Shown: positions 2,863 through 22,513, numbered from the stretch's first letter. The stretch: DNA of 27,808 nt from Minisyncoccota bacterium (GCA_938034715.1 CALHMM010000017.1:1-27808), one strand, 5' to 3'. Notes: generated by a model not told the origin, from the sequence alone. A program made the numbers and translations.

Positions 2863-3270
2863 ATGCCGTACAAAAATACTCTCATCACTATCGCAAAAGA
2901 TTCTCCTGTAGACGTCAGCGAAACTCCGACGTCAACAAGAGAAAACACACCTATGCACATCATTGTGCACGAGCTGCTTTTGGGTAATCCATATGGACAT
3001 AATCATGAACAGCTTGTTTTTGAGTCACATATTATTCACAAAAAGCTTGGTGAACTTACCAGAGAAGAGAAGGAGGTTCTATGGGCAAAACTTACAAAGA
3101 GAACGCATCCCTGCCTCAGAACGTCTCCTCTTACGAAGAAGTACGGCTACGGTGCACATTACGACGCCGTAGGAAATATCGCCCTATATCCGGTAGAATC
3201 CATGGTTTACAAAAAATTTGTTAAAGACCGCGAGATTGAAAAAATACCAGCAATGAATAACAAAAAATAA
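2863..3270 (+). CDS. DUF6157-like protein
   Basis: YKNTLITIAKDSP, NPY...LVFE.H, CLRTSPLTKKYGYGAHYD..G.IALY.VES and C-terminal AM..KK pattern. Confidence 0.75.
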   Translation: MPYKNTLITIAKDSPVDVSETPTSTRENTPMHIIVHELLLGNPYGHNHEQLVFESHIIHKKLGELTREEKEVLWAKLTKRTHPCLRTSPLTKKYGYGAHYDAVGNIALYPVESMVYKKFVKDREIEKIPAMNNKK

Positions 3271-3276
3271 GACGAC

Positions 3277-3306
3277 AAAAGGAGGCTCAATAGCGAGCTT
3301 CTTTTT
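3277..3306 (+). terminator. Intrinsic (possibly bidirectional) terminator
   Basis: AAAAGGAGGCTC / AATAGC loop / GAGCTTCTTTTT; 12-bp stem with two G-U pairs, 6 nt after the stop. Confidence 0.75.
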
Positions 3307-3322
3307 AGTTTCGTAAGTACCC

Positions 3323-3331
3323 TGCTATAAT
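3323..3331 (+). promoter_or_regulatory. Extended -10 promoter element for tspO
   Basis: TGCTATAAT 20 nt upstream of ATG 3352, just after the upstream terminator. Confidence 0.55.
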
Positions 3332-3351
3332 ACAAAAATAAAAAGCAAATC

Positions 3352-3753
3352 ATGAATGAATCACTTCAATACGAACAGCTTATCCAACCTTCCTGGGCCC
3401 CGCCGGCATATCTATTTGGCCCTGTGTGGAGTCTGCTCTACACAATCATTTTTATTACATTTGCCTTTGTTTTTTACAAAGTTTTCAAAGGGGAATTACC
3501 TAGGAAAGTTGCTATACCTTTCATACTAAACCTTGTGTTCAATGCGGCTTTCACTCCAATACAGTTTGGTTTACAAAACAACTTCCTAGCAAGTATAGAT
3601 ATAGCTCTGGTACTCATGACCCTTATTTGGTTAATGAGGGAGATTTATAAGCACCAAACCTACAGGTGGATTGCCTTTGTAAATATCCCATATCTTCTGT
3701 GGGTAAGTTTTGCAACGGTGCTACAATTCACTATTACATTTCTCAATGCATAG
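3352..3753 (+). CDS. tspO: TspO/MBR family tryptophan-rich sensory membrane protein
   Basis: Y..L..PSWAPPAYLFGPVWSLLY, LNLVFNAAFTPIQFG, PYLLWVSFATVL. Confidence 0.92.
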   Translation: MNESLQYEQLIQPSWAPPAYLFGPVWSLLYTIIFITFAFVFYKVFKGELPRKVAIPFILNLVFNAAFTPIQFGLQNNFLASIDIALVLMTLIWLMREIYKHQTYRWIAFVNIPYLLWVSFATVLQFTITFLNA

Positions 3754-3938
3754 CGTACGGAGAATCTGGCAAAAGTCAGTATCTCACACAAGGCTCGTTA
3801 TAAGATCGATACTACCGTCGATCATACTTCGTGAGATAGATATTTCGAACAAGCAAAAAACGGACTATATGTCGTGTGGCTATAAGCCAACTCCTAGTAA
3901 TCACAAAAAATTGACAAAAGACCAAAGTACGTACTGCT

Positions 3939-3967
3939 TTGACCCTACAATTCAAAAAGGATATAAT
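3939..3967 (+). promoter_or_regulatory. Sigma70-type promoter of the mre operon
   Basis: TTGACC (3939-3944), 17-nt spacer, TATAAT (3962-3967). Confidence 0.8.
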
Positions 3968-4074
3968 ACGAACAGTGCACGCTATGCTATTGGTGAGAGT
4001 TTGTATTCAAAAACAAAAAAACAACCGTAGAATCAGTATTAGCTGATTTTTTGTGTAATATAAGGGAAATTATC

Positions 4075-5172
4075 ATGAAAAGAGTCGTAGATGGCCTGTC
4101 AAAAAATGTAAAAAATACAACAAGCAGGGTCTTTGGAAGTCTTTCCAAAGACATTGGAATAGATTTAGGCACTGCCAACACGCTTGTGTACGTCGCAAAC
4201 AAGGGTATTCTGATTAATGAACCATCCGTTGTTGCCATCAACAAGCGAACAGGGCAAATTCTTGCGATAGGCACAGAAGCCAAGCTCATGGTAGGAAAGA
4301 CACCAGGTCACATCGTCGCTTCTAGACCTCTGGTTGATGGCGTCGTAAGTGACTTCGAAGTCACAGAAAAGATGCTCAAGCACTTCATAGACAAAGTCCA
4401 TGCGCAGTCATTCTCAATACTCTCTCGACCCAGAGTGCTAATCGGTATCCCATCAGGTGTAACAGAAGTGGAAAAACGAGCAGTGATCGATGCAGCAATC
4501 AACGCTGGCGCCAGGGAAGCGTACTTAATCGATGAACCAATGGCCGCATCAATTGGAGCAAGGCTGCCAGTTACAGAACCAGGAGGAAATATGGTAATTG
4601 ATATCGGTGGAGGCACAAGTGAAATTGCAGTAATTTCCCTGGGAGGTGTTGTCACGTCACGATCACTTAGAACGGCAGGTGATGAAATGAACGAGGATAT
4701 CATTCGTTTCTGTAGGGATGAATTTAATATCCTTATCGGTGAAAGGACTGCTGAAGAAGTAAAGATTGAAATTGGAAGTGCATATCCGCTAAGCAAACCT
4801 CTCTCTAAGAAGATCCGCGGGAGGGATCTCATCACTGGCCTCCCCAAAGAAGTGAGCATAAATGATGAGCATGTACGTCAGGCTTTGTCACATTCTGTAA
4901 GGATTATTGTAAATGCAGTAAAGACAATCATTGAAGAAACGCCACCAGAGCTAATATCTGACATTATGCAACAAGGAATCATTCTTGCGGGAGGTGGAGG
5001 ACTAACCAGAGGCTTGGATAAGTTACTAGCAAATGAAACAGGTATACCAGTCAGAATGATGGAAGATTCGCTAACAGCTGTTGTGCGAGGAACAGGGATA
5101 GTTCTAGAAAACTTAGAAGACCTAAAGGAAGTCTTGATAGAAAAAGATTCTACAAGACCATTGAGAAGCTAG
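4075..5172 (+). CDS. mreB: Rod shape-determining actin homolog MreB
   Basis: IGIDLGTANT, GVTEVEKRAV, EPMAASIGA, VIDIGGGTSE, LAGGGGL. ATG 4075 preferred over TTG 4051. Confidence 0.97.
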   Translation: MKRVVDGLSKNVKNTTSRVFGSLSKDIGIDLGTANTLVYVANKGILINEPSVVAINKRTGQILAIGTEAKLMVGKTPGHIVASRPLVDGVVSDFEVTEKMLKHFIDKVHAQSFSILSRPRVLIGIPSGVTEVEKRAVIDAAINAGAREAYLIDEPMAASIGARLPVTEPGGNMVIDIGGGTSEIAVISLGGVVTSRSLRTAGDEMNEDIIRFCRDEFNILIGERTAEEVKIEIGSAYPLSKPLSKKIRGRDLITGLPKEVSINDEHVRQALSHSVRIIVNAVKTIIEETPPELISDIMQQGIILAGGGGLTRGLDKLLANETGIPVRMMEDSLTAVVRGTGIVLENLEDLKEVLIEKDSTRPLRS

Positions 5173-5195
5173 TAAATATTTTGACTTTATCAACC

Positions 5196-6014
5196 ATGCA
5201 GTCACTTCATTCGAAAAAATCAAACAAATGGATCATGGTTTTATTTGTCATTCTAGTTGCCCTAATACTAAATCCATTCAAGGTAGGTGATGGTTTACGA
5301 AATATCATTGGAAACTTCTTCAATCCAGTCACGTCATATGGTGCAAGCTTAGGGAGTTCGATTAGCACAACTTTTCAAAATATCGGACGGTTAACAAGCG
5401 TGGAAGCACAAAGGCGAGCCTTACAAAGCGAGGTTGCATCACTCAAAACAAGTATTGCCACAACGGACAAAATGGCCGAAGAAAATCAGAGATTGCGCAA
5501 AGCTCTCAATTTGATCCCAAAACACAAATACAGTCTCGTAGGCGCTGATATAATCGGATATGATCTGCAAAGCGTTGGCGAATGGGTTTTGATAAACAGA
5601 GGACGAAAAGATGGTATAGAAGTAGGCATGAATACAATCCTAGATAAGGACATCCTCGTCGGCCACGTAAGTGAGGTATTCGACAAGTCTGCCAGAGTAC
5701 AGCTCATAACAAGCAAAAAAAGTATACTAGGAGCATTAGAGCCAAGCTCAATGACGAAATTCATAGTCACAGGAGATCATGGTCTAGGCATGATTGCTAC
5801 TGAGATCCCTAGAGATCTTGATCTTGAGATTGGCACAACATTACTAAGTATCAAAAGTGAACGATCTCCAAACATACAAGATCTTGGTATAGGTACCATC
5901 AAAGAGGTAACTCCTACACAAGATAATTTGACGCAGCAAGCGGCTCTTGAACCACTTTTCACACCAAGTAAGCTAAGGCAGGTATACGTGATCACTGCAA
6001 CACTGCTGCAATAA
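5196..6014 (+). CDS. mreC: Rod shape-determining protein MreC
   Basis: N-terminal TM, coiled coil ending EENQRLRKAL, INRGRKDGIEVGM, VGHVSEV...ARVQLITS; follows mreB. ATG 5196 or TTG 5181. Confidence 0.92.
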   Translation: MQSLHSKKSNKWIMVLFVILVALILNPFKVGDGLRNIIGNFFNPVTSYGASLGSSISTTFQNIGRLTSVEAQRRALQSEVASLKTSIATTDKMAEENQRLRKALNLIPKHKYSLVGADIIGYDLQSVGEWVLINRGRKDGIEVGMNTILDKDILVGHVSEVFDKSARVQLITSKKSILGALEPSSMTKFIVTGDHGLGMIATEIPRDLDLEIGTTLLSIKSERSPNIQDLGIGTIKEVTPTQDNLTQQAALEPLFTPSKLRQVYVITATLLQ

Positions 6015-17071: not shown

Positions 17072-17100
17072 TTGATTTAAGAACCTCAAATTGTTATCAT
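17072..17100 (+). promoter_or_regulatory. Sigma70-type promoter of tyrS
   Basis: TTGATT (17072-17077), 17-nt spacer, TATCAT (17095-17100) with TGt extension. Confidence 0.65.
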
Positions 17101-17123: not shown

Positions 17124-18335
17124 ATGACCATTAATACCGACCCACAAAAAATTGACCAGCTTTTGACGCGTGGTGTGGATGAAGTGATTGACGCTAAGAA
17201 CTTACGAAATAAATTACTTTCCGGAAAGAAGCTTCGTGTAAAGCTAGGAATTGACCCCACTAGTCCTGATCTACATCTTGGACGGGCTGTACCATTACTA
17301 AAATTACGTGACTTCCAGGAGTTAGGACATCAGATCATTTTCCTTGTAGGTAACGCGACGGGAGTAATTGGAGATTCCTCAGACAAGGATGCAGAAAGGC
17401 CAATGCTCACACATGAAGATGTGAAAGAAAACATGAAAAAATACGTGGAACAAGCCGGAAAGATTATTGATTTAGATAAAGCAGAGATTAGATACAACGC
17501 TGATTGGCTCAACAAATTAGGCTACAACGAAATAGGACATCATGCTGACGCTTTCTCACTCCACGAATTCCTCCAAAGAGATAATATCAAGAAACGATTG
17601 GATGCCGGGAAACGCGTCTCACTACGAGAACTCCTATATCCTCTTATGCAAGGATATGATTCCATTGCCTTAGAAGCTGACGTCGAGATCGGAGGTACAG
17701 ATCAGAGGTTTAATCTACTAGCTGGAAGGGTGTTACAGGAACAAGCAGGACAAGAAGCACAAGATATTGTCATGGGAAACATCATTATCGGAACTGATGG
17801 GCGTAAAATGAGTAGTAGTTGGGGCAATACAATCAAGCTCACCGATACTCCAAGAGACATGGGCGAAAAGATCATGAATATGCCAGATGATATTGTACCG
17901 GTCTACTTCGAGAACTGCACACGAATGCCACAAGAATTGATTGATGAAGTATTTAGAGATGCTGACCCTCGTTATCATAAGTTAATTCTTGCTGGAGTCA
18001 TAGTTAATTTCTACCATGGAGAATCCGCGGCATGCGATATTAAGGATTATCTTCAAAAAAAGTTTGTCGATAAAAATTTAGATGTAAGCGAAATAGAGGA
18101 AGTTGAGATTCACAAATGCGAACGGCTTGACTCTTTAGAGACAGTGTCTATCCTCATGGTAAGAAAGGGATATGCCACAAGTAAGAGTGACGCTCAACGA
18201 AAAATAGAACAAGGCGGAGTAAAGCTGGATGGAATCAACGTAAGTCATGGCACGAAAATACTTTCAGAGGATGATGATGGTAAGGTTCTCACAGTAGGGA
18301 AAAAAATTCAGATAAGGTTAAAATGTACAAAATGA
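17124..18335 (+). CDS. tyrS: Tyrosine--tRNA ligase (bacterial, with C-terminal S4-like domain)
   Basis: KLGIDPTSPDLHLG, YPLMQGYDS, EIGGTDQRFNLLAGR, DGRKMSSSWGN, SKSDAQRKIEQGGVKLDG. Confidence 0.97.
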   Translation: MTINTDPQKIDQLLTRGVDEVIDAKNLRNKLLSGKKLRVKLGIDPTSPDLHLGRAVPLLKLRDFQELGHQIIFLVGNATGVIGDSSDKDAERPMLTHEDVKENMKKYVEQAGKIIDLDKAEIRYNADWLNKLGYNEIGHHADAFSLHEFLQRDNIKKRLDAGKRVSLRELLYPLMQGYDSIALEADVEIGGTDQRFNLLAGRVLQEQAGQEAQDIVMGNIIIGTDGRKMSSSWGNTIKLTDTPRDMGEKIMNMPDDIVPVYFENCTRMPQELIDEVFRDADPRYHKLILAGVIVNFYHGESAACDIKDYLQKKFVDKNLDVSEIEEVEIHKCERLDSLETVSILMVRKGYATSKSDAQRKIEQGGVKLDGINVSHGTKILSEDDDGKVLTVGKKIQIRLKCTK

Positions 18336-18916
18336 TTGTAGGCATCCAAGGAGGGAGAGGCTCATTCAATGAACAAGCTTTCAGAGCACTGCAAGAACGC
18401 GGTGATCTTGATCCACAAGCAAAACCTAGTTACCTCTTCACAACTCAATCGACACTTCAAGCTGTTCAGGACAACAGTGTTGACTACGGTGTCTTTGCCA
18501 TCTACAACTCAAAATCTAAACTTGTTGCAGAATCCGCCCAAGTTATCGGTCACTATTACTTTGATGTTGTCTCATCGATCACAATACCGATCCAGCATCA
18601 TATCATGATTGCGCAAGGAGCAGACCCACTCAAGATCGACAACCTCATGGGGCACGAAGAAGCTCTGGCACAATGTGCACAGAACCTACAAAAAAAATTT
18701 GCACACATCCCAGCTAGCAGTGGTGAAAATGATCTCAAAGATGGCGCCGGGGTAGCACAAGCAATCAAACAGGGGACTGTTCCAATAACCACCGCCGTTG
18801 TGAGCTCTGAGGCCACAGCGACCACTTTTGGCATGCAAGTGATCGCCTCAAATCTTGCTGACGACCCAAACAATGCCACCACCTTTCTACTAATAAAAAA
18901 CTATTCAATTTCCTAG
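18332..18916 (+). CDS. Stand-alone prephenate-dehydratase-like catalytic domain (no ACT or chorismate mutase domain)
   Basis: GIQGGRGSFNEQA, AIYNS (canonical PIENS), I.HHIM, GHEEALAQC (canonical SHPQALAQC), DDPNNATTF (canonical N.TRF). ATG 18332 overlaps the tyrS stop (ATGA). Confidence 0.8.
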   Translation: MIVGIQGGRGSFNEQAFRALQERGDLDPQAKPSYLFTTQSTLQAVQDNSVDYGVFAIYNSKSKLVAESAQVIGHYYFDVVSSITIPIQHHIMIAQGADPLKIDNLMGHEEALAQCAQNLQKKFAHIPASSGENDLKDGAGVAQAIKQGTVPITTAVVSSEATATTFGMQVIASNLADDPNNATTFLLIKNYSIS

Positions 18917-18961
18917 AAAGCACCTTTTTTGATAAAATTAAGTCCAGAATAAAAAACAACA

Positions 18962-19984
18962 ATGCTACAAAAAATCTCACAACTCGAACAATCAGCTCTC
19001 GAAGCAATTAGAGCGGCTACTACCCAGGATGAGCTGGAACAGGTGAGAGTAATCTATCTTGGCAAAAAAAGTGATTTCACAGCAATTATGAAGAGCCTAG
19101 GCTCACTAGATGCGGATCAAAAGCGAGAAATTGGCCCAATAGCAAACGCAGCTCGCAAAAAAGTACAAGAAAAAATCCAGAGCAAACAGCAGGAGCTGGA
19201 AGATGCATTTGATGCGCAAACACAATGGATAGACGTCACCGCCCCCGGTAAAAGAGACAACCTAGGGCATCTCAATCCTCTGAGCATCGTACAGCGAGAT
19301 ATAGAAGACATTTTCACCTCCATGGGATTTGAGATCTCAGATGGCCCAGAAATAGAAACTGAGTACTATAACTTCGATGCAGTGAATGTGCCTGACAATC
19401 ATCCAGCAAGAGATATGCAGGATACTTTTTGGATAGATGCACCAAGAGGTGAAAAGCACGTCCTTCGCACACACACATCTTCAGTGCAAGTTCGCTATAT
19501 GCAACAACACACGCCACCCTACAGAATTATCATCCCAGGTCGTGTTTTCCGACAAGAAGCAACTGACGCGTCTCACGAGCACACTTTCCATCAATTAGAG
19601 GCTCTGGTGGTAGGAGAAAATGTGAGTGTTGCGAACTTTCTTGATATCGCACAATCATTTTTTAGTGCATTCTTTGGCAGAGAGATAAAGGTTCGTCTCA
19701 GGCCAAGTTATTTTCCTTTTGTAGAACCAGGTTTTGAATTCGATATTTCTTGCACCATTTGTAGTGGGGATGGGTGTAGTGCTTGTCAGCGCACTGGCTG
19801 GATAGAAATAGGTGGTGCTGGCATGGTACATCAAAACGTCCTTGAGGCAGGTGGATACGAAAAAGGGAAATACACAGGATTTGCTTGGGGCTTTGGCTTA
19901 GAACGTCTAGCAATGATGAAATACAAAATTGACGACATTAGACACTTTCACAGTGGTGATATACGCGTTAGTGAGCAATTCTAA
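18962..19984 (+). CDS. pheS: Phenylalanine--tRNA ligase alpha subunit
   Basis: LGKKS, GHLNPL, HPARDMQDTF, LRTHTS, PGRVFR, RPSYFPFVEP, CxxC...CxxC insert, GFAWGFGLERLAM. Confidence 0.98.
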   Translation: MLQKISQLEQSALEAIRAATTQDELEQVRVIYLGKKSDFTAIMKSLGSLDADQKREIGPIANAARKKVQEKIQSKQQELEDAFDAQTQWIDVTAPGKRDNLGHLNPLSIVQRDIEDIFTSMGFEISDGPEIETEYYNFDAVNVPDNHPARDMQDTFWIDAPRGEKHVLRTHTSSVQVRYMQQHTPPYRIIIPGRVFRQEATDASHEHTFHQLEALVVGENVSVANFLDIAQSFFSAFFGREIKVRLRPSYFPFVEPGFEFDISCTICSGDGCSACQRTGWIEIGGAGMVHQNVLEAGGYEKGKYTGFAWGFGLERLAMMKYKIDDIRHFHSGDIRVSEQF

Positions 19985-20037
19985 TTATCCAATGTTACCA
20001 GACCACTCACCCATGAACTCTTAATGTAGATATACTT

Positions 20038-22392
20038 ATGCTTTATAGTTACAAATGGTTACAGGAACTAAGTCAAACAAAAAAAAGCGCGCAAGAAATT
20101 GCACAGCTACTACTGACACACTCCTTTGAAGTAGAAGATGTCAAACCACAATCTGATGGATTAGAAGATGTATTTGTAGGACATGTCATAGCAGTTCAAG
20201 AGCACCCGCAGGCTGATAAGTTAAAGATTGCAACTGTAGATTTGGGACAAGAAAAACTACAAATTGTTTGCGGAGCACCAAATCTATCCCAAGGACAGAA
20301 AGTGCCAGTAGCAATCGTTGGCGCGAACCTTCCTGGAGATTTTGAAATAAAAATGGCAACAATAAGGGGTGTACAAAGTGCAGGAATGATCTGCGCGCCG
20401 GACGAACTAGGGCTAGGTGATGATCACGACGGTATTATGGTACTTGACCACGATGCCACAATTGGAACATCATTTGCAAAACACATGGAACTTGATGACA
20501 CAATTCTTGACATCGATGTACTACCAAATAGAGCGCATGATGCTCTCTCTCACCAAGGCATGGCTCGTGAAATTGCAATGCTTGAAGGACGCAAAGTATT
20601 ATTTGAAGAAAAAAATCTTTCACAAATTCCTAATGGAATAGAGGTAGAAATTCAAACACCAAACTGTCTTCGTTATGTTGGACTGTCCCTAAACAACATA
20701 ACTATAGAGCCTTCGCCAAAATGGTTACAAAACCGTCTAAAGTCTCTTGGACACAATGCCATTAACAATGTAGTTGACATCACCAACTACATTATGCTTG
20801 AGACTGGGCAACCACTACACGCTTTCTCCCAAGAATATGCATCTCAAATAAACGTACGACAAGCCAAAACAAGCGAGAAAATGACTTTGCTTGATCAAAC
20901 GGAAGTTACTCTTTCCAATGAAGATATTGTCATAACAGATGGTAATCTACCAATAGCACTAGCAGGTATAATGGGAGGTAAAGGGAGTGCAATTACAGAC
21001 ACAACCTCGTCAGTAATGCTAGAGATTGCAAATTTCGACGCACGCAGTGTACGAGCTACAAAATCAAGATATGGCCTACAATCAGATGCCGCCTATAGAT
21101 TTGAACGTGACTTAGACCCTAATCTTGTCGATCAAAGTCTTGCACGAGCAGTCGAATTGTTCGAGCAAATATGTGGTGCAAAAATCTCAGCAATCACGGA
21201 TGTTTATCCTGAACCGATAAAGCAATGGAGCATTGCCTTACCTCACGGAGAGATAGAAAAACTTCTCGGTATCGAAATCGAGCACAGTAATGTACAGAAA
21301 ATTCTTCATGACATAGAGATAACTATTTCTCAAAAAAACGACGTGTATCTATGTCATGTGCCTACAGTCCGCAAAGACCTAAATACACCAGAGGATCTCA
21401 TTGAAGAAATTGGCCGTATCTATGGCTATGATAAAATTCATCCACGACCGCTCAATGAAATCGTAAAGGCCCCCGCAAAAAACGAGCAAAGGCTATTTGA
21501 ACGCACAACAAAAGACTTTCTCATAACGCAAGGTTTTAGTGAGGTACGATCATATTCTTTCTACAGTCAAGATGATGCGATTGCCGTAGGATCGACAGAA
21601 GCACACGTCTCACTTTCAAATCCAATGAGTAGCCAGCAAAAGTATATGCGGCGCACGCTCGCTGTAGGGCTCCTACAATCAGCTTCTCAAAATCAAAGCT
21701 ACAAGAACACAACCCAACTCTTTGAAATAGGCCGACTGTACATTCCCAACAAAACAGGCCTTCCAGATGAGAAGATTGTACTCGGTATCTCAGTAACGGC
21801 AAAATCAGATAATGCCCAGCAGTTCTATGTGTTAAAGGGACTAATTGACAAATATTTCAATTCTCTAGGCATCAAAGATCACTACTACAGCGAAAAAGCT
21901 ACACGAAACACTACTAGTGTAGTAGACTTACATCCCTCGCGACAAGCATCAATTCATCTCCAGTCAGGAAGTGTGGTAGGCTCAATTGGTGAAATAACAA
22001 AAAATACTGCTAAATACTTCACGGTAAAAAATGCGTCTACTGCATTTTGTGAGCTTGATTTAGATCTGATACGGCACATCTCACAAGATCTACACGAATT
22101 TATACCATTAGAGAAGTATCCAGCAGTACAAAGAGATCTATCAATCATTGTTGCTGAACGAACTCGTGTCGCAGATATGGAGCGAATAATTGCTTCTGCC
22201 GGAACAGAGATTCTTCAAAAAATCGATCTCTTTGATCTCTACATAGACAAAGAAAAAGCAGAGAGATCAATGGCATTTCACCTTTCTTTTAGCTCTCCTC
22301 AACGGACGCTTACAGCAAAGGAAGTGGACGCAATCATGGAAGATATCACGTCGACTCTCGAGAACGAAGACGACATCCAAATTAAAAGGTAG
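20038..22392 (+). CDS. pheT: Phenylalanine--tRNA ligase beta subunit
   Basis: HPQADKL, IVCGAPN, PNRAHDALSH.GMARE, NNVVDITNY, RFER.LDP, DLIEEIGRIYGY, YPAVQRDLS. Confidence 0.98.
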   Translation: MLYSYKWLQELSQTKKSAQEIAQLLLTHSFEVEDVKPQSDGLEDVFVGHVIAVQEHPQADKLKIATVDLGQEKLQIVCGAPNLSQGQKVPVAIVGANLPGDFEIKMATIRGVQSAGMICAPDELGLGDDHDGIMVLDHDATIGTSFAKHMELDDTILDIDVLPNRAHDALSHQGMAREIAMLEGRKVLFEEKNLSQIPNGIEVEIQTPNCLRYVGLSLNNITIEPSPKWLQNRLKSLGHNAINNVVDITNYIMLETGQPLHAFSQEYASQINVRQAKTSEKMTLLDQTEVTLSNEDIVITDGNLPIALAGIMGGKGSAITDTTSSVMLEIANFDARSVRATKSRYGLQSDAAYRFERDLDPNLVDQSLARAVELFEQICGAKISAITDVYPEPIKQWSIALPHGEIEKLLGIEIEHSNVQKILHDIEITISQKNDVYLCHVPTVRKDLNTPEDLIEEIGRIYGYDKIHPRPLNEIVKAPAKNEQRLFERTTKDFLITQGFSEVRSYSFYSQDDAIAVGSTEAHVSLSNPMSSQQKYMRRTLAVGLLQSASQNQSYKNTTQLFEIGRLYIPNKTGLPDEKIVLGISVTAKSDNAQQFYVLKGLIDKYFNSLGIKDHYYSEKATRNTTSVVDLHPSRQASIHLQSGSVVGSIGEITKNTAKYFTVKNASTAFCELDLDLIRHISQDLHEFIPLEKYPAVQRDLSIIVAERTRVADMERIIASAGTEILQKIDLFDLYIDKEKAERSMAFHLSFSSPQRTLTAKEVDAIMEDITSTLENEDDIQIKR

Positions 22393-22483: not shown

Positions 22484-22513
22484 TTTACAGGGACATTTTT
22501 TGTATGATAAAAT
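22484..22513 (+). promoter_or_regulatory. Putative htrA promoter
   Basis: TTTACA (22484-22489), 18-nt spacer, TAAAAT (22508-22513) with TGa extension. Confidence 0.5.

Follow-up and report, generated by a model that had tools for sequence, protein, structure and literature searches.

The dehydration step of phenylalanine (Phe) biosynthesis is known from several protein architectures. In Escherichia coli, prephenate dehydratase (PDT) is a domain (residues 101-285) of the P-protein, PheA, where it is fused to chorismate mutase (CM) and to an ACT domain; the gene is under pheL attenuator control, and pheL-pheA lies beside tyrA-aroF and is not linked to pheST. Zhang and colleagues are said to have found in 1998 that the excised dehydratase domain is active and Phe-insensitive, and in 2000 to have implicated T278, N160, and Q215 in catalysis. 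Monofunctional PDTs, with a two-lobed catalytic domain, are represented by those of Brucella (6vh5), Chlorobium tepidum (2qmx), Arthrobacter (3mwb), and S. aureus (2qmw). Dehydration of prephenate gives phenylpyruvate, which needs a transaminase to become Phe, while the arogenate route of plants and some bacteria gives Phe directly, with no transaminase needed. Plant arogenate dehydratases retain the TRF motif and an ACT domain, to which their substrate specificity maps (PMC13217925), and the Komagataeibacter protein GqqA (7am0), a PDT homologue that is active as an acylase of N-acyl homoserine lactones (AHLs), likewise retains its ACT domain and complements a pheA mutant of E. coli (PMC8192741). 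Here, we describe a stand-alone PDT-family protein of 194 amino acids, without an ACT domain, that is encoded between tyrS and pheS-pheT on a 27,808-nt stretch of DNA (GCA_938034715.1, CALHMM010000017.1; hereafter, the window) from a Minisyncoccota bacterium, a member of the candidate phyla radiation (CPR). We propose that this protein may be an active, unregulated cyclohexadienyl dehydratase fed by a scavenged intermediate, with arogenate as the favoured substrate, a reading to which its sequence context gives, in our judgement, an even chance.

With respect to family and fold, the product of the gene at 18332-18916 (+ strand) matches PF00800 at 102.2 bits against a cut-off of 25.2 (E = 3.8e-29), residues 3-190 of 194 corresponding to model positions 1-178 of 181, and it aligns with E. 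coli PheA over the whole dehydratase domain. A profile of this protein and its first homologues matches solved PDTs across the catalytic domain (E = 1e-18 to 4e-20), and its AlphaFold (AF2) model (pLDDT 97.1) superposes in Foldseek on 6vh5, 2qmx, 3mwb, and 3luy with TM scores of 0.81 to 0.85 and root-mean-square deviations of 2.2 to 2.7 Å, in a two-lobed fold like that of periplasmic binding proteins. Pfam finds no ACT domain in the protein, and the chain stops 9 residues past a TTF motif, so that it has no Phe feedback site; in the same alignment, the ACT domain with its ESRP motif is visible in the canonical PDT of a relative, G004. The NCBIfam matches are to PDT models only, and they stay far below the equivalog cut-offs of NF008865/NF008866 (83.9 versus 219 bits and 74.9 versus 359 bits). 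Without the TRF motif, the GALV and ESRP motifs of ACT, an equivalog-level score, or pathway partners, this is not a canonical, feedback-regulated PDT of the PheA type.

Alignment with the PheA sequence from the annotated E. coli genome shows that counterparts of several PheA residues are kept, including those implicated in catalysis (T278, N160, and Q215). Window residues N59, H89, H108, Q114-C115, and T183 correspond to N160, H190, H209, Q215-C216, and T278 of PheA, and the acidic character of E232 is preserved as D137. Changes are found at R279 (T184), E159 (Y58), S208 (G107), and P210-Q211 (E109-E110), so that, compared with the monofunctional PDTs, TRF becomes TTF, PIENS becomes AIYNS, and SHPQ becomes GHEE. 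The codons of T183-T184-F185 lie at 18878-18886, and this tripeptide aligns with the TRF of 6vh5, 3mwb, 2qmx, and E. coli (T278-R279-F280), with the Thr kept and the Arg replaced.

The loss of the Arg is shared with a larger group of proteins. An exhaustive profile search recovered approximately 170 representative clusters at E < 1e-30, compared with approximately 5,000 ordinary PDTs at 1e-10, and among 159 tabulated proteins (the window protein being counted twice, as WIN and as collection entry P0001) the motif reads TTF in 80, TSF in 21, and TRF in 5. Members share GIQGGxGSF, A-x-x-N-S, H-x5-Q-C, and N-x-T-[TS]-F and end just past the last of these; every residue that is near-invariant across the clade is present in the window protein, including the counterparts of N160, H209, Q215, C216, and T278. 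In the tree, the ACT-less clade (46 rows) is split from the TRF enzymes with SH-aLRT support of 97, and the window protein pairs with its orthologue in the relative G002 at 98. Judged from motifs and tree, the window protein is thus a member of a distinct clade and not a one-off product of decay.

Clade members elsewhere are embedded in the Phe branch. Some carry an N-terminal fusion to chorismate mutase (CM_2, approximately 285 aa) or to a TyrA dehydrogenase (PDH_N, approximately 445 aa), and the stand-alone form occurs in same-order relatives in operons of overlapping genes, together with CM and aminotransferase (AT) genes: AT4-CM-PDT (G037 and G044), PDT-CM-AT (G035), and PDT-TyrA.CM-AT (G046). 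Furthermore, in four genomes with a CM-(AT)-(TyrA.)PDT-pheS-pheT arrangement, the clade member is the sole PF00800 gene, and in two of the four a chorismate synthase gene lies approximately 1 to 2 kb away on the same contig. These contexts speak strongly for the clade as the source of a working Phe-branch dehydratase despite the absent TRF Arg. By tree and motifs, the ACT-less TyrA-dehydratase fusions and CM-AT-dehydratase operons of CPR, Dormibacterota, Melainabacteria, and other genomes belong to the same clade as the window protein; they have pathway partners nearby, sometimes including chorismate synthase, whereas the window dehydratase stands alone and is coupled to tyrS.

We observe the following order in the window, all on the + strand. 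The tyrS gene (17124-18335) encodes a tyrosyl-tRNA synthetase (TyrRS) of 403 aa (Pfam tRNA-synt_1b, 9.1e-64, plus S4), and its stop codon (TGA, 18333-18335) overlaps the dehydratase start (ATG, 18332-18334) in an ATGA junction at 18332-18335 that suggests translational coupling. The dehydratase stop codon (TAG, 18914-18916) is followed by a 45-nt spacer (18917-18961) and by pheS (18962-19984), which starts with ATG at 18962 and encodes the 340-aa alpha subunit of phenylalanyl-tRNA synthetase (PheRS; tRNA-synt_2d, 2.7e-97, plus Phe_tRNA-synt_N). The adjacent pheT (20038-22392) encodes the 784-aa beta subunit (B3_4, tRNA_synthFbeta, tRNA_bind, FDX-ACB, and B5); with all alpha- and beta-subunit domains present, including the editing B3/4 domain, this is a bacterial pheST operon, and TyrRS likewise has its full domain set. 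Open reading frame (ORF) calls, the sequence itself, and Pfam bear out the gene order, the ATGA overlap, the 45-nt gap, and the promoter-like element at 18930-18938 of the original prediction. A second in-frame ATG at 18323, 9 nt upstream of 18332 and with AAGG 6 nt ahead of it, would give a 197-aa product, the form of collection entry P0001; comparison of the sequences indicates that 18332 is the conserved start, because orthologues begin with M-[I/T]-V-G-I-Q-G-G and retain the ATGA overlap.

The association of the dehydratase with synthetase genes extends to its homologues. We annotated the neighbours at 160 related loci, drawn from genomes and metagenomes by means of seed proteins; in 17 of these, spread over several phyla, a dehydratase gene stands immediately 5' of pheS in the same orientation. 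Two of these loci belong to the window lineage (L044 of G002, and L125) and have tyrS ahead of the dehydratase gene; an eighteenth, L126, has tyrS followed by the dehydratase gene where the contig ends. Among the remainder, CM-AT-PDT-pheST occurs in a metagenome-assembled genome (MAG) of Levyibacteriota and on a complete chromosome of 1.6 Mb labelled Gammaproteobacteria, the two dehydratases being sister sequences (support 100); (CM-)TyrA.PDT-pheST occurs in MAGs of Acidobacteriota, Levyibacteriota, and Gammaproteobacteria, and PDT-pheST in one of Alphaproteobacteria. Since the PDT-pheST loci fall in at least three separate clades of the tree, the adjacency is recurrent and not one inherited accident.

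Within the lineage, tyrS-PDT-pheST is kept in four genomes or contigs (the window, G002/L044, L125, and L126 up to the contig end), with the ATGA junction seen in three of them (the window, G002, and L125). The tyrS orthologues of G002/L044 and L125 hold the equivalent position at 65 to 68% identity, and lineage synteny continues in the 5' direction to secF and a Met-rich gene; the relatives that carry names are Moraniibacteriota and Pacebacteria MAGs. The arrangement tyrS-pdt-pheS-pheT is a genuine operon, passed on vertically within one Moranbacteria-type lineage.

At locus L059, on the 1.6-Mb chromosome labelled Gammaproteobacteria (OZ246394.1), the CM-aminotransferase-PDT-pheS-pheT operon with its TTF-type dehydratase takes up 5001-5579 of the locus and the flanks, and no chorismate synthase was found in the genomes of L059 and of the Levyibacteriota locus L108, so that both carry post-chorismate modules without a shikimate pathway. 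The pheT that follows the dehydratase in L059, L088, L101, L113, L120, L177, and L202 encodes a protein of approximately 650 aa that aligns with the window PheT from about residue 140 to 150 onward; these shorter PheT proteins of other phyla do not have the N-terminal tRNA-binding domain present in the 784-aa window protein.

In the window's genome, the partners of the dehydratase are missing. [quoted passage not shown] The lone class I/II aminotransferase match (PF00155), considered as a transaminase candidate, is serine hydroxymethyltransferase (SHMT), and the lone ELFV dehydrogenase, considered as a Phe dehydrogenase, is GDH-type. CM_2, chorismate synthase, and class IV enzymes are likewise missing from the other assemblies of the genus, and class I/II matches there are of SHMT strength only in two of three, with none in G003. 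The lack of chorismate mutase, prephenate dehydrogenase, aminotransferase, and shikimate genes that had been remarked on for the window thus extends to the whole assembly, which does not hold a complete Phe pathway in which this gene would serve as the ordinary PDT. The accompanying premise, a general lack of amino-acid biosynthesis in CPR bacteria, proved too broad here, since same-order relatives have CM-PDT-aminotransferase operons and two have chorismate synthase.

As to the substrate, the fused members of the clade are informative. The best solved relative of their TyrA domain is soybean PDH1, and 69 of the 70 TyrA-dehydratase fusions in our set have Asp at the equivalent of GmPDH1 residue 222, a position at which an acidic residue makes the enzymes of plants and bacteria specific for arogenate (PMC5681985). 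For a dehydratase joined to an arogenate dehydrogenase, the simplest expectation would be that both use arogenate. For the window protein, arogenate is favoured over prephenate because the genus has no recognised transaminase for phenylpyruvate, and a transaminase-free step to Phe matches what the genus retains. The salvage idea of the original prediction, in which arogenate is converted to Phe in one step, fits both the transaminase-free genus and the arogenate-type TyrA of the fusions, and is partly supported, on the premise of an active enzyme. A broader version, in which the whole ACT-less T-[T/S]-F clade would consist of arogenate dehydratases and the genus would make Phe from arogenate that leaks out of the host or is drawn from it, in one unregulated step within a TyrRS/PheRS operon, is possible, and we put it forward tentatively and with some doubt.

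These elements may be combined as follows. The compact post-chorismate operons of the clade (CM, aminotransferase, and dehydratase, the latter often fused to an arogenate-type TyrA) repeatedly run into pheS-pheT, and in the window's genus everything in that operon except the dehydratase would have been lost. An intermediate from the host or a neighbour would be taken up and converted by the dehydratase to the substrate of PheRS. Through the ATGA coupling, the dehydratase would be made in step with TyrRS, and pheST may receive an extra promoter of its own.

Several observations weigh against salvage by an active dehydratase. The absences on which it builds are read from an incomplete assembly in many contigs, the TRF Arg is missing, the window subclade has HPQ changed to HEE and E159 to Tyr, and the G002 orthologue (L034, 5627-6217) reads TTM and not TTF. 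Since plant arogenate dehydratases retain TRF, TTF is no known signature of arogenate use; we know of no arogenate or prephenate importer and identified none, and the genome has no TyrA to account for the coupling to tyrS. Our literature search gave no assayed member of the ACT-less T-[T/S]-F clade, nor any biochemical study of such dehydratases or of pheA-pheST linkage. The nearest homologues, in other genera of the family, lie away from synthetase genes, beside a VirD4-like ATPase, a GT4 and Wzy, or an alpha/beta hydrolase. Moreover, G004 has the short form alongside a canonical AT4-CM-PDT operon (TRF, ACT/ESRP) and chorismate synthase, and G017 gives the same search matches, so that the role of the short form in this family may not be ordinary Phe supply.

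The coexistence in G004, together with Dormibacterota loci in which the TyrA-fused form adjoins a CM plus TRF-PDT gene, indicates that the short form is probably not simply redundant with PheA. Such non-redundancy fits a different substrate, but another reaction or a role in binding would be compatible with it as well. We consider it unlikely that the protein is an active enzyme with another reaction or substrate, such as a non-aromatizing prephenate decarboxylase of the BacA/AerD/SalX type, a GqqA-like acylase, or another cyclohexadienyl dehydratase, for which the synthetase neighbourhood would be incidental in this genus. PDT-fold proteins with other activities do exist, and GqqA is among the top structural matches (TM 0.78 to 0.79, 18% identity; PMC8192741); the paired dehydratases of G004 (with like matches in G017) and of Dormibacterota, and the variable neighbours at the family level, point the same way. 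However, the wider clade is set in CM, aminotransferase, and TyrA operons and supplies the sole PDT-family gene of four such genomes, and the pheST linkage recurs in several phyla. No bacilysin- or aeruginoside-type cluster genes lie near the dehydratase.

The alternative that the protein is a non-catalytic partner or sensor of TyrRS and/or PheRS, binding Phe, Tyr, or a cyclohexadienyl compound, would explain the tyrS coupling conserved in three genomes, and the absence of the rest of the pathway, transaminases included, from the genus speaks for it. The fold, shared with periplasmic-binding-protein-like ligand binders and LysR effector domains, and the motif changes of the subclade (HPQ to HEE, and TTM in G002) are in line with binding without catalysis. 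Against it stand the location of close homologues in sister genera far from synthetase genes and the fact that no residue invariant across the clade has been lost, with T278, N160, and Q215 each having its counterpart; we regard it as improbable. For the sensing, channelling, and quality-control roles of the original prediction, the tight tyrS coupling is the one observation that bears on them.

That the gene no longer has a function and is decaying, as what is left of a CM-AT-PDT-pheST operon, is disfavoured and in our estimate very improbable, although no other pathway gene remains. The number of nonsynonymous substitutions per site (dN) relative to L125 is 0.27 for the dehydratase, 0.25 for tyrS, and 0.26 for pheT; synonymous divergence (dS) is saturated in all pairs except dehydratase versus L125 (dS 2.5, dN/dS 0.11), so the comparison with the neighbours is by dN alone. 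The G002 copy, with its TTM motif, diverges faster than its neighbours (dN 0.45 versus 0.24 to 0.35), which would suit decay, but four genomes or contigs have an undisrupted frame (48 to 66% identity), 46 columns are invariant among seven members (44 to 66% identity), and the tyrS coupling is conserved. The dehydratase is under purifying selection, and an active dehydratase fed by salvage remains the reading that we prefer.

The spacer before pheS contains an extended -10-like sequence, TGATAAAAT, at 18930-18938 (+ strand), a candidate internal pheST promoter with no -35 match. A -10-like box lies 22 to 24 nt 5' of the pheS ATG in all three lineage spacers, reading TGATAAAAT in the window, TGGTACAAT in L125, and TATAAT in G002. 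A consensus promoter scan did not exceed shuffled sequence (17 sites found versus 15.4 expected) and did not list the 18930 element, so the case for the TGnTAAAAT element comes solely from its conserved position in the relatives. The separate pheST promoter that had been suggested is therefore backed by the boxes at the equivalent place in two relatives and not by the scan. A promoter-like site 5' of tyrS (17072-17100, + strand; TTGATT-17-TATCAT with TG) is a consensus match of a kind found in chance numbers. Across 17124-22392, the consensus scan found no terminator-like site on the + strand, and an Rfam scan of the window at gathering thresholds gave no match, neither a T-box nor a Phe leader. 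The strongest promoter-like match of the region is at 22484-22513 (TTTACA-18-TAAAAT with TG, 10/12), and this site spans the start of an HtrA-like protease ORF that follows pheT and has a listed TTG start at 22500. The sequencing runs with DNA matches are marine metagenomes of one study, with no RNA run listed.

Some further observations concern PDT-family genes outside the lineage. In Dormibacterota loci (L051, L058, L067, L090, L100, and others; approximately 2900-5580), the TyrA-fused ACT-less dehydratase (TSF) is divergent to a gene of approximately 680 aa encoding CM plus TRF-PDT, so that these free-living organisms retain both dehydratase types side by side. The 1.2-Mb relative G004, in which a threonine-dehydratase-like gene, PALP-type as judged by eye, follows the canonical AT4-CM-PDT operon (L205, 2-823; G004:C66), has kept more of its amino-acid metabolism than the window's genus has. 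Odd PDT-family genes on long branches occur at L019 and L029 (G010 and G015) and at L017 and L018 (G031 and G042); these types are of approximately 250 to 330 aa with T-F-F and approximately 568 aa with T-E-F at the motif position.

What is new here is the recurrent linkage of the dehydratase to pheST across phyla, and a genus with no transaminase left for Phe. That genes finishing Phe/Tyr recurrently share a transcription unit with pheST, and in this case with tyrS as well, amounts to a simple design for supply and charging, and we know of no unit of this kind in model bacteria. If active, the clade would define a widespread, feedback-insensitive branch of dehydratases that is the sole Phe route in many uncultured phyla and is missed by equivalog models. 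For the window's organism, an active enzyme would point to a concrete metabolite, arogenate or prephenate, for which an ultra-small CPR bacterium depends on a partner, and this dependency can be tested; if the arogenate reading is true, a CPR symbiont would complete an amino acid from a salvaged precursor with a single enzyme.

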